Counted from the stretch's first letter, positions 4,241 through 50,431 are shown. The stretch: 50,826 nucleotides of DNA from Euryarchaeota archaeon RBG_19FT_COMBO_69_17 (GCA_001800825.1 MGWD01000027.1:13015-63840); one strand, 5' to 3'. Notes: a model not told the origin generated them from the letters alone. Translations and numbers: made by a program.

Positions 4241-4876
4241 GTGCGGCCCCGCGTGATCATCAACGCCGCGATGTCCGTGGACGGGAAGATCGCCCTCGCG
4301 GACGGGCACGGGGTGCGGATCAGCAACGAGGAGGACCTCCGCCGCGTCCACGAGCTTCGGGCGGAGATCGACGCGATCCTCGTGGGGATCGGGACCGTCC
4401 TCAAGGACGATCCCAAGCTGACCGTGAAGGCGGAGTACGCGACGGGGAAGAACCCCCTGCGCGTCGTCCTCGACTCCGGCGGCCGCACCCCGCCCGACGC
4501 GAAGGTCCTCGACGCGTCCTCGCCCACCCTCATCGTGACGTCGGCCGACTGCGATCGGACGTTCAAGCACGCGGAGGTCCTCCGGTGCGGGAAGGACGAC
4601 GTCGACCTGAGGGCCCTCCTGGACCACCTCCAGGCCCGCGGCATCGGGTCCGTCCTCGTCGAGGGCGGGAGCACGGTCATCTGGGCCTTCCTGCGGGAGG
4701 GCCTCGCGGACGAGGTCCGCGTGTTCGTCGGCAGCGTGGTCCTCGGGGGCGCATCCGCCCCGACCCTGGCGGGCGGCGAGGGCGCAGGCTCAATCGACGA
4801 GGCGGCCCGCCTTCGCCTGGACCGCGTGGAACGCCTCGGGGACGGCGTCCTCCTCGTGTACACGGTGGTCCGGTGA
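4241..4876 (+). CDS. arfC: 2,5-diamino-6-(ribosylamino)-4(3H)-pyrimidinone 5'-phosphate reductase (RibD C-terminal domain, archaeal type)
   Basis: 211 aa. It has the N-terminal VIINAAMSVDGKIA and the GIGTVLKDDPKLTV / LVEGGSTV motifs of the RibD_C reductase fold. There is no deaminase domain. Confidence 0.85.
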   Translation: MRPRVIINAAMSVDGKIALADGHGVRISNEEDLRRVHELRAEIDAILVGIGTVLKDDPKLTVKAEYATGKNPLRVVLDSGGRTPPDAKVLDASSPTLIVTSADCDRTFKHAEVLRCGKDDVDLRALLDHLQARGIGSVLVEGGSTVIWAFLREGLADEVRVFVGSVVLGGASAPTLAGGEGAGSIDEAARLRLDRVERLGDGVLLVYTVVR

Positions 4877-6934: not shown

Positions 6935-9900
6935 GGCCTCCCCTCCCTCGACGGCAGTTCGACTACTCGGGCACCCAGGCCGTCCGCTCCCTCCAGGAGG
7001 AGGGGGTGCGGGTCGTCCTCGTGAACAGCAACCCCGCGACGATCCAGACGGACCTCGGGACCGCGGACGTCACGTACGTGGAGCCCCTCACGGTCGAGTT
7101 CCTCGAGCGGGTCCTCGCGAAGGAGAGGCCCCAGGGCATCCTGAGCGGGATGGGCGGGCAGACCGCCCTCAACCTGTGCAGCGAGCTCGCGGAGCGCGGG
7201 GTCCTCGCGACGTACGGCGTCGAGCTGCTCGGCACGAAGCTCGAGGCGATCGCCGCGAGCGAGGACCGGGAGAAGTTCGCCTCCCTCATGCGGTCCATCG
7301 GGGAGCCCGTCCCGCGAAGCATGGCCGTGTCCGACGTCCCCGCGGCCCAGGCCTTCGCGGAGAAGGTCGGCTTCCCCGTCATCGTGCGGGCTGCGTACAC
7401 CCTGGGCGGCAGCGGGAGCGGGGTCGCCCGCGGGCACGAGGACCTCGAGCGGATCGCGGGTCTCGGCCTCGCGTACTCCCGGATCCACCAGGTCCTCGTC
7501 GAGGAGAGCGTCCTGGGGTGGAAGGAGTTCGAGTACGAGGTCATGCGGGACGGCGCGGACAACTGCATCACGATCTGCAACATGGAGAACATCGACCCCA
7601 TGGGCCTGCACACGGGGGAGTCGATCGTCGTGGCCCCCGCCCAGACCTTGAGCGACGGGGACCATCAGACCCTCCGGTCCGCGTCCCTCCGGATCATCCG
7701 CGCGCTCAAGATCGAGGGGGGATGCAACATCCAGTTCGCGGTCCACCCGACGACGGGGGAGTACCGCGTGATCGAGGTGAACCCTCGCGTCTCGCGGTCC
7801 TCCGCCCTCGCCTCGAAGGCCACGGGCTACCCGATCGCCCGGATCGCAGCGAAGATCGCGATCGGCCTCACCCTGAACGAGATCCCGAACGCGGTCACGG
7901 GGAAGACGAAGGCGTCCTTCGAGCCCACCCTCGACTACGTCGTCACGAAGATCCCTCGCTGGCCCTTCGACAAGTTCCCGACCGTGGACCCGCACCTCAG
8001 CACCTCGATGAAGAGCACGGGGGAGGTCATGGCGATCGGCCGGACGATCGAGGAGTCCCTCCTCAAGGCGGTCCGGTCCCTCGAGATCGGGAAGCTCGGC
8101 CTCGAGCCGGAGCCCTGGACGGACGACGCCCTGCGTGAGGAGCTCGGAGTCCCGACGGACAAGCGCCTCTTCGCGGTCGCGGAGGCCTTCCGCCGCGGAT
8201 GGCCCGTCGGGAAGGTCGCGGAGCTCAGCGCCTGGGACCCCTTCTTCCTCGAGAAGGTCCGGGCCATCGTGGCCATGGAGGCGCGCCTCCATGGGCGACG
8301 GTCCTCGCCCGCCCTCCTCGCGGAGGCGAAGCGGATGGGGTTCTCCGACGCGCGGATCGCGGCCCTCTCTGGAGGGACGGAGGCCTCCGTCCGCCGTCGC
8401 CGGCCGAGGGTCACGTACAAGATGGTCGACACGTGCGGGGGCGAGTTCGAGGCCCGGACGCCGTACTTCTACTCGACGTACGAGTCCGCGGGCGAGACCT
8501 CCCGGCTCCGAGGGCGCAAGGTCCTCATCGTCGGGGGCGGGCCCATCCGGATCGGCCAGGGCGTGGAGTTCGACAACTGCTGCGTCCACGGGATCCAGGC
8601 CCTCCGGGAGGCTGGCGTCACGGCGATCATCGCGAACAACAACCCGGAGACCGTGTCCACGGACTTCGACGTCTCGGACCGGCTCTACTTCGAGCCCCTC
8701 CAGCTGGAGGACATCCTCAACATCGTCGAGGAGGAGTCCCCGGACGGGATCATCCTCCAGTTCGGCGGGCAGACGTCCGTGAACCTCGCGGTCCCCCTCG
8801 CGAAGGCCCTGGCCCGCATGCGGGCCAGGACCCGGATCCTCGGCACCCCCCCGGCGTCCATCGACCTCGCGGAGGACCGTCGAAAGTTCGCGGCCCTCAT
8901 GCGCCGCCTCGGGATCCCCCAGCCCCGGGCCGCGTCGGGCTACGGCTTCTCGGAGGTGCGGGCCCTCGCGGGCCGGATCGGATATCCGGTCCTCGTCCGC
9001 CCGTCCTACGTCCTCGGAGGCCGCGGGATGGAGATCGTCCACTCCGAGGAGGAGCTCGAGCCGTTCATGGAGTCCGCGACCCGCGTCTCGCGGGACCATC
9101 CCGTCCTCGTGGACAAGTACCTCGACCACGCGACAGAGGTCGACGTGGACGTCGTCGCGGACGGCCGGGACATCTTCATCGGGGGGATCCAGGAACACGT
9201 CGAGGAGGCGGGGATCCACTCGGGGGACGCGACCCTCGTGATGCCGCCCACGACCCTCGGTCCCGACGTCCTCGGTCAGATCCGGACGATCACGCGCCGA
9301 GTCTGCAAGGCCCTGGGGATCGTCGGCCTCATGAATCTCCAGCTCGCCGTGAAGGACGGGAAGGTGTACGTCCTCGAGGCGAACCCGCGTGCGAGCCGGA
9401 CGGTCCCCTACGTGTCGAAGGCGATCGGCGTGCCCCTCGCGAAGGTCGCGACCCAGGTCATGCTCGGGTCGAGCCTGAGGCGCCTCGGGCTCGTTCGGGA
9501 GCCGCGCATCGACCACGTCGCCGTGAAGGCGTCCGTGTTCCCCTTCCAACGCCTCCCGGGTGTCGACGCGATCCTCGGGCCCGAGATGAAGAGCACGGGG
9601 GAGGTCATGGGGATCGACGGGACCCTCGGCCGGGCGTTCTACAAGGCGATGGTCGCCGCCGGGAACCCACTCCCCGTCGAGGGGGCCGTGTACATGACGG
9701 TCCGGGACGAGGACAAGCCCGCGGCGGCCGAGGTCGCCCGGCGGTTCGCCTCCTGCGGCCTCCGGATCTACGCGACCCGGGGCACGGCCCAGATCCTCCG
9801 GGAGCAGGGGGTCGACGCGAAGACGGTCTACCGGATCAGCGAGAACCAGTCCCCCGACGCGCTCGGGCTCATGCGCCGGGGCGAGATCCGGCTCGTCGTG

Positions 9901-15058: not shown

Positions 15059-15069
15059 GACATATCTCC

Positions 15070-15303
15070 TCAGAACTTGATACCCGTGAGGGTCTTCGTG
15101 TCGATCACGCCGGGGATGGACCGGATCTTGTCCACGACGACCTGGCCGAGGATGTTGAAGTCCTCCGCCTCGATCTTCGCGATTAGGTCGTACTCACCGA
15201 AGAGCGGGTGAAGCTCCACGATCTCCTTCACCTTGAGGAGCTCGTTGTACACCTCGTGCTCCTTCGCCGGGGCGGTGCTGATGAGCACGAACCCGATAGC
15301 CAT
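15070..15303 (-). CDS. stand-alone Lrp/AsnC ligand-binding (RAM) domain protein
   Basis: 77 aa (MAIGFVLISTAPAKEHEVYNELLKVKEIVELHPLFGEYDLIAKIEAEDFNILGQ), which matches the AsnC_trans_reg fold pattern. There is no HTH. Confidence 0.8.
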   Translation of the reverse strand: MAIGFVLISTAPAKEHEVYNELLKVKEIVELHPLFGEYDLIAKIEAEDFNILGQVVVDKIRSIPGVIDTKTLTGIKF

Positions 15304-15335
15304 CCCTGGTCACCGCGCCGAGAACCTACTGTCAT

Positions 15336-15343
15336 GATATAAC
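15336..15343 (-). promoter_or_regulatory. TATA-like box
   Basis: The minus strand reads AAAGGGTTATATCA. The TATA centre is about 36 nt upstream of the ATG at 15303. Confidence 0.4.
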
Positions 15344-15378
15344 CCTTTCGTACCGTCCCTCCCCTGGAGAGGGCTGCA

Positions 15379-16296
15379 TCAGAAGGTGGCGTGTCGGCGC
15401 GCTCGCGCAACGACCCGATCCCACGTCGGCAGGTTCGTCTGGGTCCCCTTCGTCTCGACGACGAAGCTCGCGACCGCAGAGCCGAGGATCCCGCAGCGAC
15501 GGAGGTCGAGGCCGCGGGCGAGCCCCGCGTAGAACCCCGCTCGGTACGCGTCCCCCGCGCCCGTGACGTCGACGACGCGCCCCGGCCGGACTCGAGGGAC
15601 GCGGACCTTGCCCTCGCGGGTGAAGATCACGCTCCCCCGCGACCCGAGCGTCGCGACGACCACCTCCGCATGCCGCAGGAGGCCCGCCGTTGACGTCGTC
15701 CCCGCGAACCGCTTCGCCCGTGCGATCTCCGCCTCGTTTCCGAAGAAGTACGTCGACCGGCGGAGGAGGCTGAGAAACAGGCTCCTCCGGTAGACGTAGT
15801 GGATCTCCTGGGAGGGGTCGAAGGCGATGGACCGGCCGAGATCCTCCGCGAGGTCCGCGACCCTCACATAGTACTCGGGCCGGCCCGTCCCGAGGTGGAC
15901 GAGCTCCACGTCCCGGACGCTGTGCCGAAGGACGGGCCGACGGGCCGTATCCTTCATGGGCCCTTGGTCCACGATCGCCATCTGGTTCCCCCGGCGGTCC
16001 GAGAACACCCAGGCCGTGGGGGTCGAGCGTCCTCGGACGACCCGGAGGTCCCGGAGGTCTACGCCGTCCTCGCGGAACGCGTCGCGGTAATCTTCGGGGA
16101 AGTCCGGGCCGACGAAGGACGCGAGGGAGGTGCGGACGCCGAGGCGCGCCGCCGCGCGGGCGAGGTTACCCGCCGTCCCCCCGAAGTACCGCCGCCGGTC
16201 GAGGATCTGGATCGACGTGTTCGGGTCGGGGAGCCGGGGGACCGTGACGATGTAGTCGAGGACGACATGCCCGAAGGCGCCGAGGAAGTTCTTCAC
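15379..16296 (-). CDS. PfkB-family carbohydrate/nucleoside kinase
   Basis: The start is placed at the GTG at 16296 (VKNFLGAFGHVVLDY), overlapping the upstream stop as GTGA. It has the PfkB signature DVTGAGDAYRAGF. The N-terminal 100 aa of the listed ORF are junk. Confidence 0.85.
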   Translation of the reverse strand: MKNFLGAFGHVVLDYIVTVPRLPDPNTSIQILDRRRYFGGTAGNLARAAARLGVRTSLASFVGPDFPEDYRDAFREDGVDLRDLRVVRGRSTPTAWVFSDRRGNQMAIVDQGPMKDTARRPVLRHSVRDVELVHLGTGRPEYYVRVADLAEDLGRSIAFDPSQEIHYVYRRSLFLSLLRRSTYFFGNEAEIARAKRFAGTTSTAGLLRHAEVVVATLGSRGSVIFTREGKVRVPRVRPGRVVDVTGAGDAYRAGFYAGLARGLDLRRCGILGSAVASFVVETKGTQTNLPTWDRVVARARRHATF

Positions 16297-30782: not shown

Positions 30783-32348
30783 TCAGGACCGTAGGATCTC
30801 CCGGGCTGCATTGTAGCCCGGCGCGCCCGTGACCCCGCCGCCGGGGTGGGCCCCCGAGCCGCACAGCCAGAGGCCGTCGATCGGGGTCCTGTACCGCCCC
30901 CATCCCGGGACGGGGCGGAGGAGGAACTGCTGGTCGAGGCTCATCTCCCCATGGTACACGTGCCCGCCCGTGAGGCCGAAGCGGGCCTCGAGGTCCGGCG
31001 GCGTGAGGATCTCCCGCCCGACGATCGAAGGCCGCAGGCCGGGGAACGCCTCCTCGAGGCGGTCGAGGACCTTCTCCCCGAGCTTCTCCCGGGCCTTGTC
31101 CCAGTCCCCCCGCCGCAGGCCGTACGGCGTGTACTGGACGAGGACGCCCATCACGTGCTTCCCGGGCGGCGCGAGTCCCGAATCCTCGAGGGTCGGCAGG
31201 ATGACGTCGAGGACGGGCTCGTCGGACGCCCTGCCGTACTTCGCGTCGTCGTACGCCCGCTCGACGTAGTCGAGGGAGGGCGCGAGGCGCGTGTGGACGG
31301 GCGGCCGCCCGTCCGCCGCGGGCGCGAACCGAGGGAGGGCGTCGAGGGCGAGGTTCATCTTCGTGAGGACGCCCGTCGCGCGGTACGCGCGGATTGCGGA
31401 GACGAAGGAGGGCTCGAGCTCCGCGGGGTCCACGAGCCGGAGGAACGTCCGCTGGGGGTCCGCGTTGCTCGCGACGGCCCGTGCGGGGACCCGCTCCCCG
31501 GAGGCGAGCTCGACGCCCACGGCCCGCCCGTCCTCCACGAGGATCCGCCGGACCTCTGCGTCCGTCCGGATCGTCGCGCCGGAGGCCCGGGCCGCGTCCG
31601 CGAGGGCGGCCGCGAGCTGTCCCATCCCCCCGCGCACGAGGGCCCATGAGCCGCCGTTGACGTACGCGAGGGCGCCGTGGAGGAGCCCGAACGCGGTCCC
31701 CGGGGACCGCGGCCCGCGGAACGATCCCAGGAGGGCGCCGAACGCGAGGGTCGCCCGGAGGAGGTCCGTCTCGAACCACTCCCTCAGAAGCTGGTGCAGG
31801 CTCATGGGCGGGAGCCGGAGCGCCTGCCCCATCGCGTCCTTCCCGAGCTTCCGGAGGCGTAGGGCGCGCCGGAGGAAGAAGGCCTGCTCGCCGAGGCCCA
31901 CCCCCGAGAGATCCGGGGGCGTCCGCAGGAGGAGAGGGTCCATGACGGCCGCGAGCTGGACGAGCATCTTGAGGAAGCGCGGGTACGCGGCCGCGTCGGC
32001 CGCGGAATGGGTCCGGAGTCCCTCCGCGGTCCGGGGGAGGTCCCGGAAGAGCGTGAGGGTGTCCCCGTCGTCCCCGAGGGCCACGAGCTCCGGGTCCACG
32101 GGGATCAGCCCGAGGCCGCGGGCCGCGAGCCCGAGGTCCCGGACGATCTCGGGCCGCAGGAGGCCGCAGAAGTCGGCGGCCGTCGAGGCCCGGAAGCCCG
32201 GCGCGATCTCCTCCGTCGCGGCGGCCCCGCCGACCTGGGACCGGCGTTCGAGGACCACGACCCGGCGGCCCGCCCTCGCGAGGTACGCGGCGGCCACGAG
32301 GCCGTTGTGCCCGCCCCCGACGATGGCCACGTCCCAGGCGTCCGCCAT
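30783..32348 (-). CDS. phytoene-desaturase-related (COG1233, PYROXD2-like) FAD/NAD(P) oxidoreductase, paralog 1
   Basis: It has WDVAIVGGGHNGLVAAAYLARAG...LERR...GGAA.TEE..PGF and the C-terminal LRPVPGW..YRTPI.GLWLCGSGAHPGGGV. Confidence 0.85.
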   Translation of the reverse strand: MADAWDVAIVGGGHNGLVAAAYLARAGRRVVVLERRSQVGGAAATEEIAPGFRASTAADFCGLLRPEIVRDLGLAARGLGLIPVDPELVALGDDGDTLTLFRDLPRTAEGLRTHSAADAAAYPRFLKMLVQLAAVMDPLLLRTPPDLSGVGLGEQAFFLRRALRLRKLGKDAMGQALRLPPMSLHQLLREWFETDLLRATLAFGALLGSFRGPRSPGTAFGLLHGALAYVNGGSWALVRGGMGQLAAALADAARASGATIRTDAEVRRILVEDGRAVGVELASGERVPARAVASNADPQRTFLRLVDPAELEPSFVSAIRAYRATGVLTKMNLALDALPRFAPAADGRPPVHTRLAPSLDYVERAYDDAKYGRASDEPVLDVILPTLEDSGLAPPGKHVMGVLVQYTPYGLRRGDWDKAREKLGEKVLDRLEEAFPGLRPSIVGREILTPPDLEARFGLTGGHVYHGEMSLDQQFLLRPVPGWGRYRTPIDGLWLCGSGAHPGGGVTGAPGYNAAREILRS

Positions 32349-32351
32349 GGA

Positions 32352-33950
32352 TCACGGCCTCCCGAGGCCCCAGTCCCGCAGGATCTCCCGGGCCGCGTTG
32401 TACCCGGGCGCCCCCATGACCCCCCCGCCCGGATGGGCACCCGAGCCGCATAGGTACAGCCCCTTGACGGGCGTGCGGTACTGGGACCACCCGGGCACGG
32501 GCCGCAGGAAGAAGAGCTGGTTCGGCCACAGCTCCCCCTGGAAGATGTTGCCGCCCGTGAGGCCGAACTCCTGCTCGAGGTCCCAGGGGGTGAGGACCTG
32601 CCGGTGGAGGATCGCCTTGGGCAGGTTCGGGGCGTACTCCGCGAGGGTCTCGACGACCGCGTCGCCGAACTCCTCCCGCCGCTCCTCCCACGTCCCCTTC
32701 CTCAACGTGTACGGCGCGTATTGGACGAAGATCGACATGACGTGCTTCCCGGGCGGGGCCATCCCGGGGTCCAGGGTCGACGGGAGGAGGCAGTCGAGGT
32801 ACGGGCGCTTCGAGAAATCCCCGTACTTCGCGTCGTCGTACGCCTTCTCGATGTAGTCCACGCTCGGGCTGATCGAGAGGGAGCCGCGGAGGTGCTCCCC
32901 CCTCCCCGGGAGGGACGTGAACTCCGGGAGCTCCTTCAGGGCGAGGTTTACCTTCCCGGAGGAACCCTCCGTGACGTAGGCCTCGATTCCCCGCACGAAG
33001 TCCGCGGGCAGTTCGCTCCTGTCGAGGAACGCCAGGAAGGTCCGTTTGGGGTCCACGCTCGACGCGACGGCCCTCGCCTCGATCCGCGTGCCGTCCGCGA
33101 GTTCGACCCCGACGGCCCGCCCGTCCCGGGTGGCGATGCGCCGCACGTCGGCGTCCGTCCGGATGTCCACCCCATGGGCGCGGGCCGCGGACGCGATGGA
33201 CTCGCTCACCATCCCCATCCCGCCCTTCACGAACCCCCAGGCCCGGAACGCGCCGTCGACCTCGCCCATGTAGTGGTGGATCAGCACGTACGCGGTCCCC
33301 GGCGACCGCGGGCCGAGGAACGTCCCGATGATCCCGCTCGCGGACATCGTCCCTTTGAGGACGTCCGTCTCGAACCACTCGTCGAGGTAGTCTGCAGCGC
33401 TCATCGTCAGGAGGCGTGCGAAGGTCGTGAGGACCTCCTCGTCGGCCCCCTTGAAGTAGCCCAGGAGCTCGAGGAGCTTCGCGACGTTTCCCGGGCTCAG
33501 GGAGCCGATGTCCGGGGGCGTCATCCCGAGCTGGGGCTTCACGAGCCGCGCGATGCGGACCATGAGCTGGCCGAACTTCGGGTACGCCTCCGCGTCCCGC
33601 TTCGAGAACTTGGCGATCGCCCGGCGGTTCTCCTCGGAGTCCCCGCCCCGGTACAGGTACCGGCCGTCGGGCATGGGGGAGAACGTCGACTCCACGGGGA
33701 CGATCTGGTACCCGTGGACCGGGAGGTCGAGGTCCCGGATGATCTCGGGCCTCAGGAGGCTACAGACGTACGAGCACTCCGTGTACTTGAACCCGGGATA
33801 GATCTCTTCCGTGACCGCGGCGCCCCCGAGGACTTTCCGTCGCTCGAGGACGAGGACCTTCTTGCCCGCCCGGCCCAGGTACGCGGCCGTCACGAGGCCG
33901 TTGTGCCCGCCCCCGATGACGATGACGTCGTACCCGTTCCCCGGCCCCAT
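32352..33950 (-). CDS. PYROXD2-like FAD/NAD(P) oxidoreductase, paralog 2
   Basis: The start is placed at the ATG at 33950 (MGPGNGYDVIVIGGGHNGL). Its stop lies 3 nt before the paralog 1 start. It shares the same N- and C-terminal motifs. Confidence 0.85.
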   Translation of the reverse strand: MGPGNGYDVIVIGGGHNGLVTAAYLGRAGKKVLVLERRKVLGGAAVTEEIYPGFKYTECSYVCSLLRPEIIRDLDLPVHGYQIVPVESTFSPMPDGRYLYRGGDSEENRRAIAKFSKRDAEAYPKFGQLMVRIARLVKPQLGMTPPDIGSLSPGNVAKLLELLGYFKGADEEVLTTFARLLTMSAADYLDEWFETDVLKGTMSASGIIGTFLGPRSPGTAYVLIHHYMGEVDGAFRAWGFVKGGMGMVSESIASAARAHGVDIRTDADVRRIATRDGRAVGVELADGTRIEARAVASSVDPKRTFLAFLDRSELPADFVRGIEAYVTEGSSGKVNLALKELPEFTSLPGRGEHLRGSLSISPSVDYIEKAYDDAKYGDFSKRPYLDCLLPSTLDPGMAPPGKHVMSIFVQYAPYTLRKGTWEERREEFGDAVVETLAEYAPNLPKAILHRQVLTPWDLEQEFGLTGGNIFQGELWPNQLFFLRPVPGWSQYRTPVKGLYLCGSGAHPGGGVMGAPGYNAAREILRDWGLGRP

Positions 33951-34005
33951 GGACTCCTCCCCTCCTGGTCTCGCGTCTCCTCCGCCCCGCCCACCGCCAC
34001 GGAAT

Positions 34006-34022
34006 CGTTTCCGGGGGAAACG
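34006..34022. promoter_or_regulatory. palindrome CGTTTCC-GGG-GGAAACG in a divergent intergenic region
   Basis: 7-bp arms. A second palindrome, ACGCT-TT-AGCGT, lies at 34037-34048. Both fall between the divergently transcribed paralog-2 and GcvT-like genes. Confidence 0.3.
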
Positions 34023-34165
34023 AGCGGTCCCACTTAACGCTTTAGCGTCTGGGCCCCTGTACGGAGACGTCACAACGTCGAGCGCGCAAAGGTTTTATCG
34101 AACCCGCGGCATCCCGCCGCATTCGGCGCGCGCCGCGCGCCGGAGGGGAAGTCGGGAGCGAGACG

Positions 34166-35353: not shown

Positions 35354-35408
35354 ACTCTCGGGTCCCCGGCAATCCATTTATCGGAGTTCCGGGTTGCGGC
35401 CCGTGGCG

Positions 35409-36971
35409 ATGCCGTCCTTCGACGCGATCATCATCGGCGGGGGCCACAACGGGCTCATCGCCGCCGCGTACCTCGCGAGGGCGGGCCTGAGGGCCCTCGT
35501 CCTCGAGCGCCGCCCGATCCTAGGGGGCGCGAGCATCACGGAGGAGATCCACCCCGGGTTCCGCGTGAGCACGCTCGCGTACGCATGCGGCCTCCTGCGG
35601 TCGGAGATCAAGGAGGAGCTCGAGCTCGAGCGATTCGGCCTCGACGAACGTCCGTACGACCCGTCCCAGTTTCTGCCGTTCCCCGACGGGAGGCACCTCC
35701 TGTTCCGTCACGACGCGGCGTGGAACGCGGAGCAGGTCGCGAAGTTCTCCAGGGCGGACGCGCAGGCCCTCCCCCGGTACGAACGGTTCTGGAGGGAGTT
35801 CGCGGAGCTCGTGGAGCCCACGCTCCTCGCCCCGCCCGTCTCCCTCGCGGACCTCGTGTCCCTCGTGCGGACCCCCGAGGCGGAGGACTTCCTCCGCCAG
35901 CTCATGCTCCGCTCCGTCGCGGACCTCCTCGACGACTTCTTCGAGTCCGACGAGGTCAAGGCGTCCTTCGCGACGAGCGCGGTCGCAGGCACCCTCGCAG
36001 GGCCCCGGACCCCCGGCACGGCGTTCGTCCTCGGCCACCACACCCTCGGGACGATCCGGGGCCAGAAGGGGGTGTGGGGCTGGGTACGGGGTGGGATGGG
36101 GGCGATCCCCGATGCGATCGCCCGGGCGGCCCGCGCACACGGGGCGGAGATCCGCACGTCCGCACCCGTCTCCCGGATCCTCGTGCGGGACGGCCGCGTC
36201 GCGGGCGTGGAGATTCTGGACGGGGCGCGGATCGAGTCCCGGGTCGTCGTGAGCGGCGTAGACCCCCGGCGCACGTTCCTTGGCCTCGTCGGCGCGGACC
36301 ACCTGCCCGAGGACTTCGTGCGGGCCGTCGCGCGGATCCGCATGGAGTCGTCCTCGTTCAAGTTGAACCTCGCCCTCCGGGAGCTGCCCGACATCACCGC
36401 GGTCCCCGGGACCCACCTCCAGGACCACCACCGGGCGATCCTCGACATCGCGCCGTCCATGGACTACCTCGAGAGGGCCTTCGACGACGCGAAGTACGGC
36501 CGGCCGTCCCGGGAGCCGTTCCTCGAGTTCGTGATCCAGAGCGCGAACGACCCGACCGTCGCGCCGCCGGGGATGCACACCCTCACCGTGTCCGCGAAGT
36601 TCGCCCCTTTCGATCTCGCGAAGGGCACCTGGGACGACGAGGGGGAGGCGTTCGCGGACCGCATCCTCGAGACCCTCGAGGCGTACGCCCCGAACCTCCG
36701 GCGGGCCGTCGTCGCGAAGCACATCTACACGCCGCTCGACATGGAACGGGAGCACGGGATGACCCGGGGGGACGTGTTCCACGGGGCGATCCTGCCGTAC
36801 CAGATGTTCTCGTTCCGCCCCGTCCCGGGCTGGTCCCAGTACCGGACCCCCGTCGAGGGGCTCTACCTGGGCGGGGCCGGCGCCCACCCGGGCGGCGGCG
36901 TCCTCGGCGCCCCGGGTCGGAACGCGGCCACGGCGGTCCTCGAGGACTGGCCCCGTCTCAAGGGCGCCTGA
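35409..36971 (+). CDS. PYROXD2-like FAD/NAD(P) oxidoreductase, paralog 3
   Basis: ATG at 35409 (MPSFDAIIIGGGHNGLIAAAYLARAG). The listed TTG at 35394 is possible. It ends with the same C-terminal motif, RPVPGWSQYRTPVEGLYLGGAGAHPGGGV. Confidence 0.85.
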   Translation: MPSFDAIIIGGGHNGLIAAAYLARAGLRALVLERRPILGGASITEEIHPGFRVSTLAYACGLLRSEIKEELELERFGLDERPYDPSQFLPFPDGRHLLFRHDAAWNAEQVAKFSRADAQALPRYERFWREFAELVEPTLLAPPVSLADLVSLVRTPEAEDFLRQLMLRSVADLLDDFFESDEVKASFATSAVAGTLAGPRTPGTAFVLGHHTLGTIRGQKGVWGWVRGGMGAIPDAIARAARAHGAEIRTSAPVSRILVRDGRVAGVEILDGARIESRVVVSGVDPRRTFLGLVGADHLPEDFVRAVARIRMESSSFKLNLALRELPDITAVPGTHLQDHHRAILDIAPSMDYLERAFDDAKYGRPSREPFLEFVIQSANDPTVAPPGMHTLTVSAKFAPFDLAKGTWDDEGEAFADRILETLEAYAPNLRRAVVAKHIYTPLDMEREHGMTRGDVFHGAILPYQMFSFRPVPGWSQYRTPVEGLYLGGAGAHPGGGVLGAPGRNAATAVLEDWPRLKGA

Positions 36972-39148: not shown

Positions 39149-42100
39149 CTACGTCCGGCCGTTCGCGGGACCCGGACCCGGGCCCTTCGGCGCCTCGAGA
39201 GGGCTCAGCCCGCGCATGAATCCGCCCGTCTCCTTCGCCCCGTAGAGGCGTTCGAGGAGCAGCTTGACGTCCGAGATCCGGTCCATGTCCCCGTTCCAGT
39301 CCACGAGGACGCCCTTGAACCGCTTCTCGACCTCGCGCACGACCTCCTGGGCTCGGCGGTCGATCCGGCCCGAGGCGCGCCCGCGGTACAGGACGAGGAG
39401 GGTCACGTACTGCCCCTTCGCGAGGGCGACCCGGTGGTCCGCGAGCTCGATGCTCTTGAGTTCCCCGACTCCCAGGGAATGGAAGGACTCGTTCATGAAG
39501 GCCTGGATCGCCGTGAACATGGAGGCGACGAGGTCGGGGTCCTTGTCCGCCGTGAGTGTGCGGGACAGGTGGACGAGGGGGATCCCTCCTCCGTAGATCA
39601 GGAACACGTGCTCGGTCGTGGAGCGAAGGGCGCGCGTCATGACGATCACGACGCCCGCCCCGGCGAGGGCGAGGAGCCAGGGGAGCAGGGTCGAGAACAG
39701 GTCCGGGCCGACGATCTGGACGCTCAGGGTGAGGTACGTCGCGAGCTCGAAGTCCAGGATGCTCACGTTGACGAGGTCTTCCCGCACGCTGTCGGGGTAG
39801 TCGAAGATTACGAGGAGGCCCTGGGTCTGGACGTAGGGGTGGGTCGTCCAGGCCCGGAGCGCGTCCCCCTCGACGTCCCATACGTAGTCGAAGAGGTTGA
39901 AGAAGAACGAATGGTCCCGCGACACGATGACGGGGATCTCGGTGAAGCGCGGCGCATCGTTCACGGGCCTTACGGTGACCTTGATCGTGTCCTCCGAATA
40001 GGCCCCCCGCTCGTCCCGCGCGCGGAACGTGACCTGTTCGATTCCGTACCAGTCCGGGACCTGGCTCTGGAAGTCGACGGAGTGGTCCGTCCGGATCGTG
40101 ACCTCGAGGTTCACCTGGCCCGAGGTGTAGAAGATCGTTGAGCCTGGGTCCACGTCGATGAAGTACGTGTCGAGGTTGAAGGCTCCGACGCGGGGGACGT
40201 CCTCGAGGAAGCTCTGGTCCGGGATCGGGATCACGAGCACGGGCGGGTGGTCGTCTGTCACGGAGACGCTCGTGATGAGCCGTCCCTCGTCGACCGTGTC
40301 GTTCGCCACGATCACGAGCGGCAGGACATACGGCGTCGTCAGGAAGGGCGGGATGGAGAAAGGGAACAGCATCTCGAGGACGGTCCCGTTCACGGTCACG
40401 TACGCGGGTTTGTCCGTCGAGATGCGGATCTCGGAGAGGGCGTTGTCGGGGTCCGTGATGTGCGGCGCGAGGTCGAAGCGGTACGTCTCGTTGTAGTGGA
40501 CGACGAACGGCGGGAGGTAGGCGATCGACGGCGGGTCGTTCACGGGCTGGACCGTCACGAGGATCGTATCCTCCGCGATGGCCCCCTGGGGGTCCTCCGC
40601 CCGGAACGTGAGGGACTCCGCCCCGAACCAGTTCCCGAGGGCCCGGATGTCCACGGAGTGGTTCGCCTGGATGATCGCCTCGACATGGCTCGCGCCGTAC
40701 GAGTAGAAGAGGGCGTCGTTGTCGGGGTCCTGGAAGTAGTCGTCGAGGTCGAAGACCCCCGTCCGCAGCTCCCCCTCCCACAGGGTCACGTCCTCGAGGG
40801 ACCGTATGAGGACGGGCGGGGTGTCGTCCGAGACGCCGATTGCCGCGGAGTGCCTCGCCTGGAGCTGGCCGTCGTCGACCGTGAAGATCACGAAGTCCCA
40901 GGGCTCCGCGTAGTTGGCGGGGTAGTTGAAGCGGACCGTGAGGTTCCCCGTGAACCCCGTCACGTGGGGACTGTTCGTCACGAGGCGGAGCTCGCTGTCC
41001 AGGTTGTCGATGTCGAAGATGTGGGGGCCGAAGTCGAAGTAATAGGGAGCGCCGCGGCGGACGTGCATCGTGGTTGGCGCGAAGGGACCGAAGACGGGGG
41101 CGTCGTTGACCGGAGTGATGTTGACCCAGAGGGGCTGGGCATCATACCGGTTCCCCTCGTCGAAGATGATGAGGGTCACCACGTTCGACCCGTAGGCGTT
41201 CGGCTGGGGGTAGAAGGTGAGGGTGTGGTTCCCCGTGATGTTCCCGCCCTGGTACTCGAAGAGGCTTCGGTTGACCCCCGCGAGGTCCCAGCGTCGGAGC
41301 TGGATCGGGGTGTCAGGGTCTTGGGAGTAGCTCGTGAGATCGAGGGACCAGCTGTACGTGTCCTCCGGGTAGATCTGGTTCGGGACCGTACCGCGGATCG
41401 AAGGTTCCAGGTTCTCGTTGTACAGGACGTCGAGGACCGGGACGAACGTCGCGTTCCCTTCGCGGGATGCGAGGGTCGTGATCCCGGGCACGCTTTCGTC
41501 GGACGCCTTGATCACGAGGCCGACGTTGGGCTGGGCCAGGCTCGTCCAGGACTGCACGAGGCTCGTGACGTTCCAAGAGGCCCAAGCGCCCGTGGCGGGG
41601 GAAAGGGCGAGCGCGGCCCGCGTCGCGTCGTAGTCCGAGCCGGGGGCCGCCCACAAGGTCGTCCCGTCCGTCGTGCGCCACGTCACGCCGGTCCCCGAGA
41701 GGCTCTCGTGGGCCGGCAACGTCGGCAGGAGGAGGGGGGCCCCGTCGGGCGAGTTCCCGTCGAGGAACCGCCCCGTCATGTTGTAGTTGTACCCCGTCAT
41801 CCGGAAGTCGTGCCCGAGGCTCGCGGTCGAGTACGCGTACGTCCGGTCGCGGGAACTGAAGACGATCTCCATTGTCCCGTCCCCGTCGAGGTCCGCGACG
41901 GCGGGGGTCGCCGTGACACCCGTCGTGGTCGGGAAGGACCGGATGAGGCCGCCCGAGGTCGTCGGGTCGAAGACGTACAGGTTCCCCGCCCAGCTCCCGA
42001 TCAGGACGTCCTCCACGCCGTCGAGGGTCACGTCCGCGGCCGCGGGCACCGCGTACACGGCGCCGCTCACGCCGGACGTCCAGAGGGTGTTCGGGTTCGG

Positions 42101-43696
42101 CGAGGTCGAGTCGATCGCCCGGACCGAATTCCGCCGGGTCAAGGCGAAGAGGGTCTCCGTCAGCCCGTCGTCCTCGAAGTCGACGAGGATCTGGCCGCCG
42201 AACTGGTTCGAGAGGGACTGATGGTTCCAGACGACGATGCCATCCGTCCCGCGGAACGCGAATTGGTTCCCGTTGTTCCCCTGATCTCCCGCGACGATGT
42301 CCAGGTATCCGTCCCCGGTGAAATCTGCGAGACTCGGGGTCACGACCGTCGTCTGCGTGGTCGGGCTGTAGATTGCGGCCGTGGTCCCGTTCGGGTTGAC
42401 GATGTAGAAATTCCCGCCCGTTGTCGTGTACGTGATCTCGGGGCCGGGGCCCCCTCGCACGTTCCCGACTGCGGCGCCGTACCCCCAGTCGGATCCGGCC
42501 GCGATGCCGATGGACCATCGGAATGTCCCGTTGTTCGCGAAGAACGAGTAGAGCTCCTTGTCCTGGGACCCGACATAGATTTCCTTGATTCCGTCCCTGT
42601 CCGTGTCGGACAGGGCGATGGGGGAGAGGATCGCGTTCGCGGGGTACAGGCCGGAGTCCCAGAGGTACTGGCCGTCCCAGGTGAGGGCGTACAGGCGCAC
42701 GTCGGAGGGCCCGTTCACCGCGTAAAGCACCTCGGGGTGCGCATCCCCGACGACGTCCGCGACCGTGAGCACGTAATCGACGGGGGCCGTGGCCAGGTAC
42801 TTCCACAGCTCCGACCCGTCCGCCCGCAGGGCGTAGATCCAGCCCGTCGTGGACCCGAAGACGATCTCCATCCGGCCGTCGAGGTCGAGGTCCGCGGCCG
42901 TAGGGGATGCGTAGTTGGATCCGTTCGGGTAGGACCACAGCTGGTTCCAGGGGGTGACCGTCCGGTACGGGGGGACGACGGCCAGGGAGTTGCCGAACTG
43001 GAGGGAGTACGTCGCAGTCTGCATCGCGGGAACCGTGGCCCCGAAGACGACGTGGAGTTCCGTGATCGCGGAGCCCCAGTACGTGTCCCCGTAGATCTGG
43101 CTCGGGACCTCCCGGCCCGCGTCGTCGTAGACTCGGAAGTCCGCGAGGGTCGTCGTCGTGAGGTTCACGGGGAGGACATACCGGATGTCGACGGGTTCCC
43201 GGAGCCGCGAGACGCCTGCGGTCTCCCGGAGGACGATGGGCTGGCGGTACGCGAACTGGCTCCCCGTGCCCTCCGTCCAGGGCGTCCGGACGCGGTGCAC
43301 GTCGAGGACCTGGCCCGCGGGTCCGTCGAGGACATAGCCGCGGAGGGTCGCGTCGAGGATCGTCGCCTGGCGGGGGATCGCGGACAGGTTGAACCGGAGG
43401 GCTCCTCGGTAGATGACGCCCGTCCCCACCCCGACCCCGATCTGGTCGCTCCCTCCGTAGTTGCGGTCAGGGTTCCTCGATTCGATGAAGGCGTCGGCGA
43501 CGGCGGGGAAGGTCCCTTGGGTCGCTCGGGGGGTCGGGGAGGGAGCGTCGGCTGTGCTCGGATCCGCCGCGGGGACGCGGGCCGCCTCGGCCGCCGCGAA
43601 GGCCGGATCCGGAGGGCTTGGCCACGAGGAGAGGAGGATGGCGAAGAGGAGCAGTAGGAGGATGACGCGCGCTGTGCGTCGCTCTCGTGACGGCAT
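39149..43696 (-). CDS. giant (1515 aa) type-I membrane surface protein: signal peptide, two DNRLRE-like modules, FG-GAP/VCBS propeller, six cadherin-like Ig modules, one TM, cytoplasmic globular tail
   Basis: Uninterrupted ORF with GC3-rich codons. The signal peptide is RRTARVILLLLLFAILLSS...AFA|AAE. There are at least six DxDxDG Ca-loop repeats. The V.PVNDAP / DD.PPVL module ends repeat. The TM helix is LLPWLLALAGAGVVIVM, at about nt 39635-39700. Confidence 0.85.
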   Translation of the reverse strand: MPSRERRTARVILLLLLFAILLSSWPSPPDPAFAAAEAARVPAADPSTADAPSPTPRATQGTFPAVADAFIESRNPDRNYGGSDQIGVGVGTGVIYRGALRFNLSAIPRQATILDATLRGYVLDGPAGQVLDVHRVRTPWTEGTGSQFAYRQPIVLRETAGVSRLREPVDIRYVLPVNLTTTTLADFRVYDDAGREVPSQIYGDTYWGSAITELHVVFGATVPAMQTATYSLQFGNSLAVVPPYRTVTPWNQLWSYPNGSNYASPTAADLDLDGRMEIVFGSTTGWIYALRADGSELWKYLATAPVDYVLTVADVVGDAHPEVLYAVNGPSDVRLYALTWDGQYLWDSGLYPANAILSPIALSDTDRDGIKEIYVGSQDKELYSFFANNGTFRWSIGIAAGSDWGYGAAVGNVRGGPGPEITYTTTGGNFYIVNPNGTTAAIYSPTTQTTVVTPSLADFTGDGYLDIVAGDQGNNGNQFAFRGTDGIVVWNHQSLSNQFGGQILVDFEDDGLTETLFALTRRNSVRAIDSTSPNPNTLWTSGVSGAVYAVPAAADVTLDGVEDVLIGSWAGNLYVFDPTTSGGLIRSFPTTTGVTATPAVADLDGDGTMEIVFSSRDRTYAYSTASLGHDFRMTGYNYNMTGRFLDGNSPDGAPLLLPTLPAHESLSGTGVTWRTTDGTTLWAAPGSDYDATRAALALSPATGAWASWNVTSLVQSWTSLAQPNVGLVIKASDESVPGITTLASREGNATFVPVLDVLYNENLEPSIRGTVPNQIYPEDTYSWSLDLTSYSQDPDTPIQLRRWDLAGVNRSLFEYQGGNITGNHTLTFYPQPNAYGSNVVTLIIFDEGNRYDAQPLWVNITPVNDAPVFGPFAPTTMHVRRGAPYYFDFGPHIFDIDNLDSELRLVTNSPHVTGFTGNLTVRFNYPANYAEPWDFVIFTVDDGQLQARHSAAIGVSDDTPPVLIRSLEDVTLWEGELRTGVFDLDDYFQDPDNDALFYSYGASHVEAIIQANHSVDIRALGNWFGAESLTFRAEDPQGAIAEDTILVTVQPVNDPPSIAYLPPFVVHYNETYRFDLAPHITDPDNALSEIRISTDKPAYVTVNGTVLEMLFPFSIPPFLTTPYVLPLVIVANDTVDEGRLITSVSVTDDHPPVLVIPIPDQSFLEDVPRVGAFNLDTYFIDVDPGSTIFYTSGQVNLEVTIRTDHSVDFQSQVPDWYGIEQVTFRARDERGAYSEDTIKVTVRPVNDAPRFTEIPVIVSRDHSFFFNLFDYVWDVEGDALRAWTTHPYVQTQGLLVIFDYPDSVREDLVNVSILDFELATYLTLSVQIVGPDLFSTLLPWLLALAGAGVVIVMTRALRSTTEHVFLIYGGGIPLVHLSRTLTADKDPDLVASMFTAIQAFMNESFHSLGVGELKSIELADHRVALAKGQYVTLLVLYRGRASGRIDRRAQEVVREVEKRFKGVLVDWNGDMDRISDVKLLLERLYGAKETGGFMRGLSPLEAPKGPGPGPANGRT
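39701..41407 (-). repeat. coding tandem repeat: three A/B double modules (~190 aa each) of cadherin-like domains
   Basis: A modules end ITPVNDAPVF / VQPVNDPPSI / VRPVNDAPRF (nt ~41110, ~40545, ~39960). B modules end VSDDTPPVL / VTDDHPPVL. A2 and A3 align along their whole length. Confidence 0.6.
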
Positions 43697-43727
43697 GGAG
43701 CTCCCTAACGATCTCCCCCTGATGGGA

Positions 43728-43749
43728 GGGCGACACAGTCGGGTCGCCC
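43728..43749 (-). promoter_or_regulatory. 7-bp GC hairpin in the putative 5' leader of the giant gene
   Basis: GGGCGAC-N8-GTCGCCC lies between a TATA-like CATTTAGA (43756-43763) and the ATG at 43696. Confidence 0.3.
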
Positions 43750-43931
43750 TGGGGGTCTAAATGCCTTGGTAGCTCGTTATCGGCCCTGATACATCTGAAG
43801 TGCCGACGTATCGCTCGGCGTCGAGCCCGCCCGGGATGGGAATCCGGCCGCGTCCGTGATAATCACGCGTGTTAATGATAATCCCCGGCGACCCTTCATC
43901 TAGCTCGACCCCACATATCTCCCGTTTTGCC

Positions 43932-44075
43932 ATGAAGACCGCACTCCGCAGTGTGGGCACGTGGATCCTCACGCACCCGCGCCTGGTGGCCGCTCTGGCG
44001 TTCACCGCGCTGGTCGTCGCGGCGTTCGTCGTTATGCCCGCCATGGGCATCGCGAAGCCGCGCTGGAAGCCATAG
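43932..44075 (+). CDS. possible 47-aa single-TM protein
   Basis: The sequence is MKTALRSVGTWILTHPRLVAALAFTALVVAAFVVMPAMGIAKPRWKP. It has GC3-rich codon usage like the rest of the genome and one clear TM helix. Confidence 0.35.
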   Translation: MKTALRSVGTWILTHPRLVAALAFTALVVAAFVVMPAMGIAKPRWKP

Positions 44076-44222
44076 GATCAAACGCCCAGCGCCCCACCCG
44101 AGCCGCCATTCGTGGCGGGTCAGTGAAGAACCCGAAGGGGGAGCCGAGAGGCAAGAGCCGGAGCGCGAGAGGGAAGGCGCCCCGGGTAGCGAGCGGCTCT
44201 CCCCCTTACCCTCTTTCGCATT

Positions 44223-45233
44223 TCATTCCTCGTCCCGTGTCGTCACGTCCGCCTCGGTCGCGACTTCGGTCCCTTCTGGGCCTGGCGGCCTCTTTCTCCG
44301 AAACGGCCAGAGCTCCCGCCCGATCTCGCGGAGTCTCCGACGGGCGCCGGGGTGGCGGCTCAGGTAGACCTCGAGGAGCGTGAAGGCCAACGGGGTCCCG
44401 ACGAGCAGGCCCAGGGAGACATTCAGGCCGAACCAGCTGTTCGCGGGTGCCCCCCGGTCCGGGTGCGTGGATCCCCACCACTCGCAGCATCCCGTGCCCT
44501 CGCGGAACAGGGTCAGCTTGATGAGCCCGAACCACGGGAGCTCCCCCCGCGCCCGGCCGACGACGAAGTCGACGGGGATCACCCATCGGTCGAACTTCGT
44601 GATCGTCGTGTAGGCGTTGTGGTCCCCCATCGTGAGGAACCCGTCCCGCTGCCCTCCGACGGCGATGGACCGATCGCCCTCCGTGAGGTTGAAGAACACG
44701 GTCAGGTCCCGGGCCCATCCCGCCCGGTATAGGATGAACCGAGCGATCCCCGCCGTATCCTGCGTCGGCGCGCCGCCCGGCAGGAAGGCATCCCAGTCCT
44801 CCTCCGGCAAACGGCCGAGGTCCGGGACGTCGTAGGCGCCAGCTGTGGCGTTCCAGAGGACGTAGGCGATCGCCCGGTGGATGAACACGGTCCCGCCGAG
44901 GTTCGCGGGATTCCGGAACACGATCACGTCTCCGAAGTCCCCGTAGGTCCCGTGCCCGCCCGCCCGGCCCTCGAGGTACGTGACGACGTCCGCGCGGGAG
45001 TACACGGCCTGCACGAGGACGATGTCGCCCGTGTCGATCGCCCCGATCATGCTCTCCGTGTCGGAGTGCTGCATGCTCCCGCTCTCCACGGAGACCATCG
45101 GCGGCCACGTGCGGGCGTACGTGAAGATCCCCCCGAGGATCGCTGCGAACACGATCCCAGCGAGAAGGAGGGACCGGAGCGTGCGGCGCCATGCTTCCCG
45201 GACGTCGACCTCGGCGTCCTCCGCAGGGTCCAC
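44223..45233 (-). CDS. Sec11/archaeal-type signal peptidase I (S26B) with insertion and C-terminal extension
   Basis: Box B is VESGSM (Ser), box C is GDIVLV, box D is FIHRAI (His) and box E is MGDHN...D. There are N- and C-terminal TM helices and an acidic tail. Confidence 0.8.
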   Translation of the reverse strand: MDPAEDAEVDVREAWRRTLRSLLLAGIVFAAILGGIFTYARTWPPMVSVESGSMQHSDTESMIGAIDTGDIVLVQAVYSRADVVTYLEGRAGGHGTYGDFGDVIVFRNPANLGGTVFIHRAIAYVLWNATAGAYDVPDLGRLPEEDWDAFLPGGAPTQDTAGIARFILYRAGWARDLTVFFNLTEGDRSIAVGGQRDGFLTMGDHNAYTTITKFDRWVIPVDFVVGRARGELPWFGLIKLTLFREGTGCCEWWGSTHPDRGAPANSWFGLNVSLGLLVGTPLAFTLLEVYLSRHPGARRRLREIGRELWPFRRKRPPGPEGTEVATEADVTTRDEE

Positions 45234-49957: not shown

Positions 49958-50431
49958 CTAGGCGGGCCGGAGGGGCGCCTCCTGGGCTGGGACGTCCCAG
50001 GTCATTGCGAGGAAGTCCCGGAGGCCTCGAACGCGGTCCATGTCGCCGTCCCACGTCTCGAGGACGTCCGCGAAACGTTGCTCGATCTCGCGGACGAGGT
50101 CCTCCACGCGCCGCTCGAGACGGTTCGACTCGCGCCCGCTGTACAGGACGTACAAGAGGACCCACCGCCCCCTCCCGAACGTGACGTGGTGCCGCCCCCC
50201 CATTTCGATGCTCCGCACGCCCCCGACGCCGAGGTCGTGGAAGGAGTCGTCCATGAAGGTCTGGATTGCGGTGAACATGGACGCGATGAGGTCGGGGTCC
50301 TTCTCCGACGGCAGACGCCGGGAGAGGTGGACGAGGGGCGTCCCACCCGCGTACGTGAGGTAGACGTGCTCGATCTCACGGCGGAAGAGGCGCGATGGAC
50401 CGAGGTGGGCGGGACGGGAGAGGGTCGGCAT
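49958..50431 (-). CDS. soluble paralog of the cytoplasmic tail domain of the giant surface protein
   Basis: 157 aa with no TM helix. Residues 21-140 align by hand at roughly 55-60% identity with residues ~1362-1480 of ORF 39149..43696 (EHV[FY]L.Y.GG.PLVHLSR.L...KDPDL.ASMFTAIQ.FM..SFH.LGVG...SIE). Confidence 0.7.
   Translation of the reverse strand: MPTLSRPAHLGPSRLFRREIEHVYLTYAGGTPLVHLSRRLPSEKDPDLIASMFTAIQTFMDDSFHDLGVGGVRSIEMGGRHHVTFGRGRWVLLYVLYSGRESNRLERRVEDLVREIEQRFADVLETWDGDMDRVRGLRDFLAMTWDVPAQEAPLRPA

Follow-up and report, generated by a model that had tools for sequence, protein, structure and literature searches.

Two genes on the stretch of chromosomal DNA from a soil archaeon studied here (Euryarchaeota archaeon RBG_19FT_COMBO_69_17, MGWD01000027.1:13015-63840; 50.8 kb, 70% G+C, called the window below) encode versions of one protein module of about 130 amino acids (aa). 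The larger gene specifies a giant surface protein that carries the module as its C-terminal tail; the smaller specifies a stand-alone soluble protein, here called the solo. They lie in a region with housekeeping genes for carbamoyl-phosphate synthase, S-adenosylhomocysteine hydrolase, a P-type ATPase and others, and their coordinates are collected in Table 1. No transmembrane segment, hydrophobic segment or in-frame start further upstream is present in the solo.

Alignment of the last 163 aa of the giant with the solo by BLASTP gave 71 identities over 129 positions (55%), with 74% positives, one gap and an E-value of 2e-52, close to the 68 of 120 positions counted by hand in the initial annotation of this DNA, which had proposed the shared module and had placed it, correctly, behind the single transmembrane helix of the giant. 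The module begins about 6 residues past that helix, and the tail is predicted to be cytoplasmic because basic residues follow the helix directly. These two are the only copies in the window by tblastn and two profile hidden Markov models (HMMs) in six frames, the next matches having E > 0.6. The similarity at the DNA level that had also been pointed out is 71% over the 125 aligned codons and rises to 87% in the block then singled out. Identical residues share the same codon in 48 of 70 cases, and the G+C content at third codon positions (GC3) is about 0.9, so that protein conservation and codon bias account for the likeness without recent gene conversion; we rejected the latter as its source, since 71% overall is the identity that codon bias leads one to expect.

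Both genes are real, conserved and under purifying selection. Their frame-specific GC3 is 0.91-0.93 (0.91 for the solo), and the ratio of nonsynonymous to synonymous substitution rates (dN/dS) is about 0.25-0.33 for the solo and 0.26-0.55 for the giant tail. The solo has more than 100 stand-alone relatives (clusters at 90% identity) of 140-200 aa with 58-78% identity, all from Thermoplasmata-type metagenome-assembled genomes (MAGs), and one further near-identical copy at 99%; its orthologs occur in about 25 species. A scan of GTDB species genomes, made with two short exact peptide patterns over incomplete MAGs and hence unable to establish absence, returned 32 loci: about two dozen (approximately 26) of the solo type, two with truncated giant orthologs and four with full-length giant orthologs of 1,511-1,543 aa that are 50-56% identical over their whole length.

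In a neighbor-joining tree of module sequences, the solo clade, which includes a second solo type of about 165 aa, is nested inside the clade of giant-type tails. Solo and giant tails share 47% mean identity, and up to 68%, versus about 30% with other members of the family. The likely origin of the solo is therefore the 3' end of a giant-type gene, and the solo has been retained ever since. Its synteny with a DsbA-like gene is loose, and we found no constant operon partner, as its neighbors (DsbA-like, a 284-aa protein of unknown type, DUF998, ATP-cone) differ among genomes.

Fold and family of the module

AlphaFold2 models were obtained for the solo (m834f71e12acb; 39-sequence alignment; predicted local distance difference test score (pLDDT) 76.6, predicted template modeling score (pTM) 0.71) and for the last 193 residues of the giant (mccdf167d85ba; diverse 73-sequence alignment; pLDDT 85.7). 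Both are predicted to have the order b-b-a-b-b-b-a-a (b, strand; a, helix), the solo with an extra short helix, and this is the order that the initial annotation had read from the periodicity of the sequence. In the solo model the elements are b1 19-27, b2 32-37, a1 46-63, b3 72-77, b4 81-87 and b5 91-98, followed by C-terminal helices at 103-119, 121-125 and 131-145. In the tail model, the long transmembrane helix passes almost straight into the domain.

Foldseek comparison of the solo model with the Protein Data Bank (PDB) retrieved LAMTOR2, TRAPP longin subunits, MglB, Sec22b, Ykt6, AP sigma and Asgard Roadblock proteins; the match to Sec22b (TM-score 0.57 for the query, TMq, and 0.67 for the target, TMt) spans the full solo, C-terminal helices included. 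The tail model gave 57 PDB matches at E<=1e-3, and all among the matches listed are roadblock or longin proteins, led by dynein LC7, MglB, Asgard Roadblock3, LAMTOR2 (TMt 0.71, the best TM-score), p14/MP1 and Mon1-Ccz1; over both models the top matches also include Asgard Roadblock2/3 and TRAPP (Bet5/Trs23). Matches to LC7, MglB, LAMTOR2, p14/MP1 and Asgard Roadblock have a probability of 1.00, E-values of 1e-4 to 1e-3 and TMt of 0.57-0.71.

Roadblock and longin domains are regarded as one GTPase-binding fold in two circularly permuted forms (PMC3521125), and the models bear on which of the two arrangements the module adopts. They have the five-stranded antiparallel sheet of roadblock domains, the single b2-b3 helix lying on one of its faces. 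They also have the longin order with its two C-terminal helices, and TM-scores of 0.5-0.67 to longin proteins. The roadblock order a-b-b-a-b-b-b is not seen: no N-terminal helix is predicted for the solo, whose residues 1-18 have low pLDDT, the helix ahead of the giant module is the transmembrane segment, and both opposite-face helices are C-terminal in the two models. The structural predictions thus support a new, distant family of longin order within the roadblock/longin superfamily, in agreement with the longin/roadblock-type topology suggested at the outset. No named sequence family claims the module: searches of Pfam, NCBIfam and PADLOC, and of PDB sequences by phmmer and by profile, gave nothing significant, and matches to haemagglutinin HA2, orotidine monophosphate (OMP) decarboxylase and MotA (E 0.05-1) were set aside as coiled-helix noise. 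The Pfam family matched by most members is Robl_LC7 (PF03259), with 12 of 62 at E<=1, all of them sub-threshold; the best (P0140) scores 21.4 bits (E 2.2e-4) against a gathering cut-off of 23 bits. No longin-type Pfam family was matched at E<=1 by the window sequences, and none is among the top 25 families for the 62 members.

When 1.84 billion representative proteins were searched with a profile, the module family, clustered at 50% identity, proved to be large, with at least 3,285 clusters at E<=1e-3 and 938 at E<=1e-10. A transmembrane helix directly precedes the module in 98 of the 150 best representatives; in 88 of these the module is at the extreme C-terminus, and 74 of those are 300-2,400 aa long. 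In such proteins it mostly lies within about 10 residues of a single C-terminal transmembrane helix, on the predicted cytoplasmic face, while the ectodomains are varied (DUF11, NosD/beta-helix with fn3, CARDB, PKD, Big_9, cadherin-like, He_PIG). Further architectures consist of a transmembrane helix and the module alone, or of a zinc ribbon, a transmembrane helix and the module. All named members, among the named matches, come from Thermoplasmata, Thermoplasmatota or unclassified 'Euryarchaeota' MAGs. The module is thus a standard cytoplasmic tail of many Thermoplasmatota membrane proteins, and the membrane-anchored and free copies of the window can no longer be regarded as a special pair on that ground.

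The family consensus reads IEEVFLIy.dG.LIaH.SRrL.pd.DeDILSGMLTAVQdFVkDSF...leFGd.kILIERG..vYLAVVysG...IE..YG.vLe.WdGD. Its most strongly conserved block, D.D..SGMLTAVQ.FV.DSF, comprises the helix between b2 and b3 with its flanks, and near-invariant polar and other positions (H26, D36, D38, Q48, D53, E76, W117, G119) stand out against an overall identity of about 30-35%.

Several members depart from the single-module pattern. Thermoplasmatota proteins of about 540-578 aa (P0142 family; loci L038-L041, gene 7001..8716) have four transmembrane helices followed by two tandem modules, the second of which has lost the conserved helix motif. In every case their gene and a 250-aa DUF4350/GIFT-like gene are divergently oriented, and genes for FG-GAP/PKD surface proteins lie a few kilobases away; we considered this protein as a hub with a GTPase neighbor and discarded the idea, as the conserved neighbor is the DUF4350/GIFT-like gene. 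Soluble proteins of 1,500-2,400 aa (P0124, P0136-P0139, P0141, P0197, P0208, P0211, P0216, P0241) contain two or three internal modules about 500 aa apart and a C-terminal region of about 350 aa, which in P0124 matches DUF5915, with traces of CARDB and TPR as well. In other proteins (P0220, P0237, P0378, P0238, P0255, P0265, P0254) the module is fused to TIR_2, STAND NTPases (AAA_16 with TPR), Crp/TrmB-type helix-turn-helix (HTH) domains, DUF835 or a TFIIB-type zinc ribbon. The fusions suggest that the module acts more widely as an adaptor or sensor, in signaling within the cytoplasm or possibly in conflict systems. Proteins with tandem modules are typical of domains that work as pairs, and their existence, together with the strongest conservation falling in the helix-b3 block, lends indirect support to dimerization.

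Linkage to Ras-family GTPase genes and candidate roles

By a motif scan, 4 of about 30 solo-ortholog loci (L009, L026, L022, L030) have a small GTPase gene in the vicinity. At L009 and L026 the GTPase gene begins about 50 nucleotides (nt) past the stop codon of another gene that encodes a signal sequence, an ectodomain, a transmembrane helix and the module. The linked module gene of L009 is read in two overlapping frames (2299..3327 and 2982..4313), by an assembly frameshift or a real disruption, and its counterparts in L042 and L026 are cut by contig ends. The linked GTPases belong to the Ras family (PF00071, 116 bits against a cut-off of 21.6), score as Pfam Ras/Roc and have the G3 motif WDI[MI]G[NSH], without an equivalent of Ras Gln61, which makes dependence on a GTPase-activating protein (GAP) plausible; the family is abundant in soil Thermoplasmata, with at least 350 confirmed relatives.

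A reciprocal view comes from 80 metagenomic loci of this GTPase family (L042-L121, 642 kb) searched with the module HMM. Fourteen module-bearing open reading frames (ORFs) were found, in 13 of the 80 loci, every one next to the GTPase gene and in its orientation, and none elsewhere in the 642 kb. The module gene either ends 50-90 nt upstream of the GTPase (L042-L045) or starts 40-130 nt downstream of it (L068, L085, L095, L104, L106), with a few module genes at 0.6-1.6 kb; the downstream type occurs in about a quarter (7 of 30) of the loci that have at least 4 kb of downstream sequence. All GTPase-linked module proteins have the signal-ectodomain-transmembrane-module architecture, and that of L045 has a CBM96/DNRLRE and disaggregatase-repeat ectodomain like the N-terminus of the giant. 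The occurrence of two gene orders and several ectodomain types argues for functional coupling over inherited synteny alone. This link at the level of the family supports the signaling idea independently, if indirectly.

Characterized roadblock proteins form homo- or heterodimers by b3-b3 sheet extension and packing of the b2-b3 helix (PMC7949163, PMC10933270), the helix and b3 being the dimer interface in the RLC7 family (PMC7949163), and small GTPases use them as platforms, examples being MglB-MglA, the conservon and Ragulator-Rag (PMC4316618, PMC3521125). Since the conserved block of the module corresponds to the roadblock dimer helix and the family is tied to Ras-like GTPase genes, we propose that the module is a membrane-proximal, roadblock-type platform for dimerization and GTPase docking, and that the solo joins the giant tail or competes with it, a proposal we judge to have an even chance of being right. 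The module would pair through its b3 edge strand and b2-b3 helix, giving a tail-tail homodimer or a tail-solo heterodimer, and this pair, a ten-stranded platform on the inner side of the membrane, would dock or regulate a Ras-family small GTPase and so couple the ectodomain to a cytoplasmic switch. What is shown is the homology, the class of fold, the architecture, the size of the family and its gene linkage to Ras-like GTPases; we infer dimerization, the binding of a GTPase by the two window proteins and any direction of signaling. Heterodimerization of tail and solo, as first suggested, is plausible; the solo might instead bind a tail dimer, as MglC binds MglB (PMC7949163), or compete with the tail for the same partner. 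The position of genes for tailed proteins beside Ras-like GTPase genes in related genomes makes it probable that the domain ties proteins of the surface to a molecular switch inside the cell.

A number of observations weigh against this proposal. The P-loop/NKxD motif scan and tblastn found no small GTPase gene in the window, and flanks of about 4-8 kb around the four giant orthologs contain none either. At the four solo-ortholog loci with a GTPase, two of the GTPase genes are on the opposite strand at 1.1-4.4 kb, and the other two belong to the cassette of another module gene. The adjacency has P of approximately 1e-7 under a crude random-placement null, a figure that is post hoc and drawn from loci that are not phylogenetically independent. 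The 6-kb proximity of solo and giant recurs only in a 99%-identical contig from the same species (L003), and was not seen in other species; among GTDB genomes, scanned as above with two short exact patterns over incomplete MAGs, none had both genes. On the structural side, the Foldseek E-values are modest (1e-4 to 1e-3, with TM-scores of 0.5-0.7), and neither window sequence matches Robl_LC7 even at E<=1. Finally, a domain that senses a ligand would also be compatible with the polar residues that hardly vary (H, D.D, Q, W.GD) and with the joining of the module to HTH, TIR and STAND domains.

Some of these observations would be expected if the module were only a cytoplasmic homodimerization or anchoring domain that renders the single-pass surface proteins dimeric or gathers them in clusters, the solo being an independent paralog with a role of its own, with no tail-solo complex and no part for a GTPase in the case of these two genes. 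Roadblock proteins are constitutive dimers (PMC10933270, PMC7949163), the module terminates dozens of unrelated ectodomain types, the linkage of solo and giant is not conserved, and most solo and giant loci are without a nearby GTPase gene. We hold this to be a real but minor possibility, because solo and giant tails form a specific subclade (47-68% identity, versus about 30% to others) and share the same helix and W.GDMD motifs, which suggests a common partner; because membrane clustering makes no sense for the soluble STAND, TIR and HTH proteins that carry the module; and because the GTPase cassettes indicate that part of the family does more than dimerize.

Those same soluble fusions, to output or switch domains, would suit a PAS/profilin-like sensor of a cytoplasmic small molecule, common to tails, solo and fusions, that exerts inside-out control in the manner of PilZ/LapD. 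The residues from H26 to G119 listed above, near-invariant in a family of about 30-35% identity, are also what a ligand site might leave, and PAS-like folds that bind ligands are relatives of the roadblock/longin fold (PMC3521125). Yet the top Foldseek matches are all protein-protein platforms, not PAS or GAF domains, the genes adjoin a GTPase rather than a nucleotide cyclase or another messenger-making enzyme, and the most conserved element is the canonical dimer and partner-binding helix of roadblock proteins, so that we consider such a sensor rather unlikely. As for the solo alone, its position within the giant-tail clade, its location 6 kb from the giant on the same strand and the local DNA identity of 87% might be taken to mean that it is a decaying partial duplicate of the giant 3' end, or a product of gene conversion, without function. 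This is very improbable, and the conservation data effectively refute it: the ORF is intact, with its own ATG and a coding-type GC3 of 0.91, it has been kept as the gene of a stand-alone protein of 150-190 aa in about 25 species (more than 100 clusters at 90% identity, 58-78% identical), dN/dS is about 0.25-0.33, and the overall DNA identity of 71% is as predicted from codon bias.

Roadblock and longin domains are ancestral platforms for the regulation of small GTPases, as in MglB, Ragulator, TRAPP, DENN and SRX, and their archaeal history has been discussed mainly for Asgard archaea. Extending the dimerizing, GTPase-docking platform to the phylum, we offer the tentative suggestion, one we would not put above a fair minority of outcomes, that the non-Asgard Thermoplasmatota have widespread single-pass, receptor-like surface proteins whose roadblock/longin tails, with soluble paralogs, recruit or regulate Ras-family GTPases, giant and solo being one receptor-adaptor pair. 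The fold and the partnership of roadblock domains with GTPases are of kinds already known. What appears to be new is a large unannotated family of longin order in non-Asgard archaea, its use as a built-in cytoplasmic tail of single-pass surface proteins, and its position beside GTPases of the Ras family rather than those annotated as canonical MglA; we found no description of any of the three, the tail included, in the searchable literature on roadblock or longin domains in archaea or Thermoplasmata. If correct, this would be a prokaryotic system of receptor-to-small-GTPase transmembrane signaling or positioning, and a simple, abundant archaeal link between a GTPase switch and the cell surface. 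The conserved tails of hundreds of giant proteins now labeled 'hypothetical' would gain a function, annotation would gain a new domain model, and tail, solo and GTPase would offer a tractable case of receptor-GTPase coupling arising outside eukaryotes.

The giant protein and its gene neighborhood

The ectodomain of the giant is built from recognizable parts (Table 1), among them a propeller region in which PF13517 (FG-GAP_3) scores 80 bits over six stretches. A C-terminal sorting signal of the PGF-CTERM/archaeosortase type is not seen: the transmembrane helix is followed by about 160 residues, a predicted folded domain among them, and an NCBIfam scan of the giant gave no sorting-signal match.

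Table 1. Coordinates of the features discussed, in the window and at loci (L numbers) with GTPase genes near solo orthologs
Feature	Sequence	Coordinates	Strand	Extent and basis
Giant surface protein gene	Window	39149..43696	(-)	1,515 aa; full-length orthologs (50-56% identity) in L014, L021, L024, L025
N-terminal signal-like segment of giant	Window	43592..43696	(-)	aa 1-35, hydrophobic core VILLLLLFAILL; sequence and hydropathy
DNRLRE / CBM96 domain of giant	Window	43265..43513	(-)	aa ~62-144; NF033679 93 bits, PF24517 49 bits
FG-GAP repeat beta-propeller region of giant	Window	41828..42949	(-)	aa ~250-623, limits approximate; PF13517, PF01839, propeller families
Ig-like / cadherin-like repeat region of giant	Window	39767..41359	(-)	aa ~780-1310, limits approximate; Big_9, Cadherin_4, tandem-95 repeat matches
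Single C-terminal transmembrane helix of giant	Window	39638..39700	(-)	aa 1333-1353; basic stretch T-R-A-L-R after it; model helix 11-34 of the 193-aa fragment
Predicted cytoplasmic module of giant	Window	39242..39619	(-)	aa ~1360-1485; AlphaFold, Foldseek, 55% identity to solo
Pro/Gly-rich C-terminal extension of giant	Window	39152..39241	(-)	aa 1486-1515; no predicted secondary structure
Signal-peptidase-I-like membrane protein gene	Window	44223..45233	(-)	336 aa, directly upstream of giant; TIGR02228 sub-threshold, E 2.6e-5
Solo, stand-alone soluble module protein gene	Window	49958..50431	(-)	157 aa; ATG at 50431
Predicted folded module of solo	Window	49997..50377	(-)	aa 19-145; AlphaFold, Foldseek
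Ras-like GTPase gene	L009	4361..4963		
Ras-like GTPase gene	L026	418..1020		
Ras-like GTPase gene	L022	6205..6747	(-)	
Ras-like GTPase gene	L030	2996..3544	(-)	

The gene directly upstream of the giant encodes a membrane protein with a VESGSM serine motif, no Pfam match and a sub-threshold match to TIGR02228, the archaeal signal peptidase I family. By analogy with SipW and TasA, the giant may have its own dedicated signal peptidase in this protein. The order of the two genes is kept in L014, L021 and L024. They are separated in the window by 43697..44222, which holds a 97-aa ORF (43757..44050) with a low GC3 (0.74) and a partly conserved stretch of about 45 codons; this ORF could be regulatory rather than coding. 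A short conserved stretch is present in L025 as well, and the conserved block around the giant comprises the signal-peptidase-like gene, the short conserved stretch and the giant itself, with genes of the AHSA1-like or saccharopine dehydrogenase kind next in order. Downstream of the giant orthologs in L014, L021, L024 and L025 lie two or three more tandem paralogs (38-47% identity) of a 525-aa gene found at 35394..36971 in the window.

Elsewhere in the window, two adjoining paralogous genes for flavin amine-oxidase-like proteins (PF01593) occupy 30783..32348 and 32352..34073 on the minus strand. Rfam and tRNA scans of the window found no RNA genes. Two intervals of 0.9 and 1.2 kb (3299..4240 and 15059..16292) contain no ORF with the strong GC3 signature typical of window genes and, likewise, no Rfam or tRNA match.

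Comparison with known systems

The giant resembles integrin alpha subunits in having an FG-GAP propeller, Ig/cadherin-like repeats, one transmembrane helix and a cytoplasmic tail. In integrins the tail is a short, unfolded peptide to which talin and kindlin bind, whereas the tail of the giant is predicted to be a folded domain of 126 aa. The giant has no beta subunit, I-domain or NPxY-type motif, and no integrin-beta-type family is among the Pfam matches of the window genes scanned. FG-GAP propellers are common in prokaryotic surface proteins. The resemblance is architectural only, and the integrin-like coupling from outside to inside suggested in the initial annotation stays at the level of analogy.

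In the models, the module has the b-b-a-b-b-b-a-a order of longin domains exactly, as found in Sec22b, Ykt6, TRAPP Bet5/Trs23, AP sigma and Mon1-Ccz1, and SRX-SRbeta is a further example of the class. Longin domains also bind small GTPases (PMC3521125). They usually lie N-terminal to a C-terminal transmembrane anchor, as in the R-SNAREs, whereas here the transmembrane helix is N-terminal to the domain, and the module has no longin match in Pfam at the sequence level. Ragulator/LAMTOR-Rag supplies the best match by TM-score (LAMTOR2, 0.71) and, in a membrane-anchored stack of roadblock heterodimers that docks GTPases, a further parallel to the arrangement proposed here. Its anchor is the lipidated LAMTOR1, not a transmembrane helix, and it is a eukaryotic complex with Asgard homologs that has no ectodomain.

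A prokaryotic counterpart is MglB/MglA of Myxococcus and Thermus. MglB belongs to the same predicted fold class, its chains being among the best Foldseek matches, and in part of the module family a small Ras-superfamily GTPase is likewise encoded next door. The b2-b3 helix, conserved in the module, is conserved and functionally important in MglB too (PMC7949163). MglB is soluble, whereas the module is fused behind a transmembrane helix to large extracellular regions; and MglB has one N-terminal and one C-terminal helix, whereas both extra helices of the module are C-terminal in the models. The adjacent GTPase scores as Pfam Ras/Roc, and the module falls below the Robl_LC7 threshold. MglC, a roadblock paralog that binds MglB (PMC7949163), provides a precedent for the suggestion that a free roadblock paralog may bind a roadblock protein of the same system, but it does so dimer to dimer through a side surface, not by a mixed b3 heterodimer (PMC7949163).

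The Streptomyces conservon consists of the membrane kinase CvnA, the roadblock protein CvnB, CvnC and the GTPase CvnD (PMC4316618). No kinase or CvnC homolog is seen here. Like the arrangement proposed for the module family, the conservon brings a membrane sensor, a roadblock protein and a Ras-superfamily GTPase together in one genetic module, which has been read as a receptor-coupled GTPase switch. Its sensor, a histidine kinase, and its roadblock protein are separate polypeptides, whereas in the Thermoplasmatota proteins the roadblock-like domain would be the receptor's own tail.

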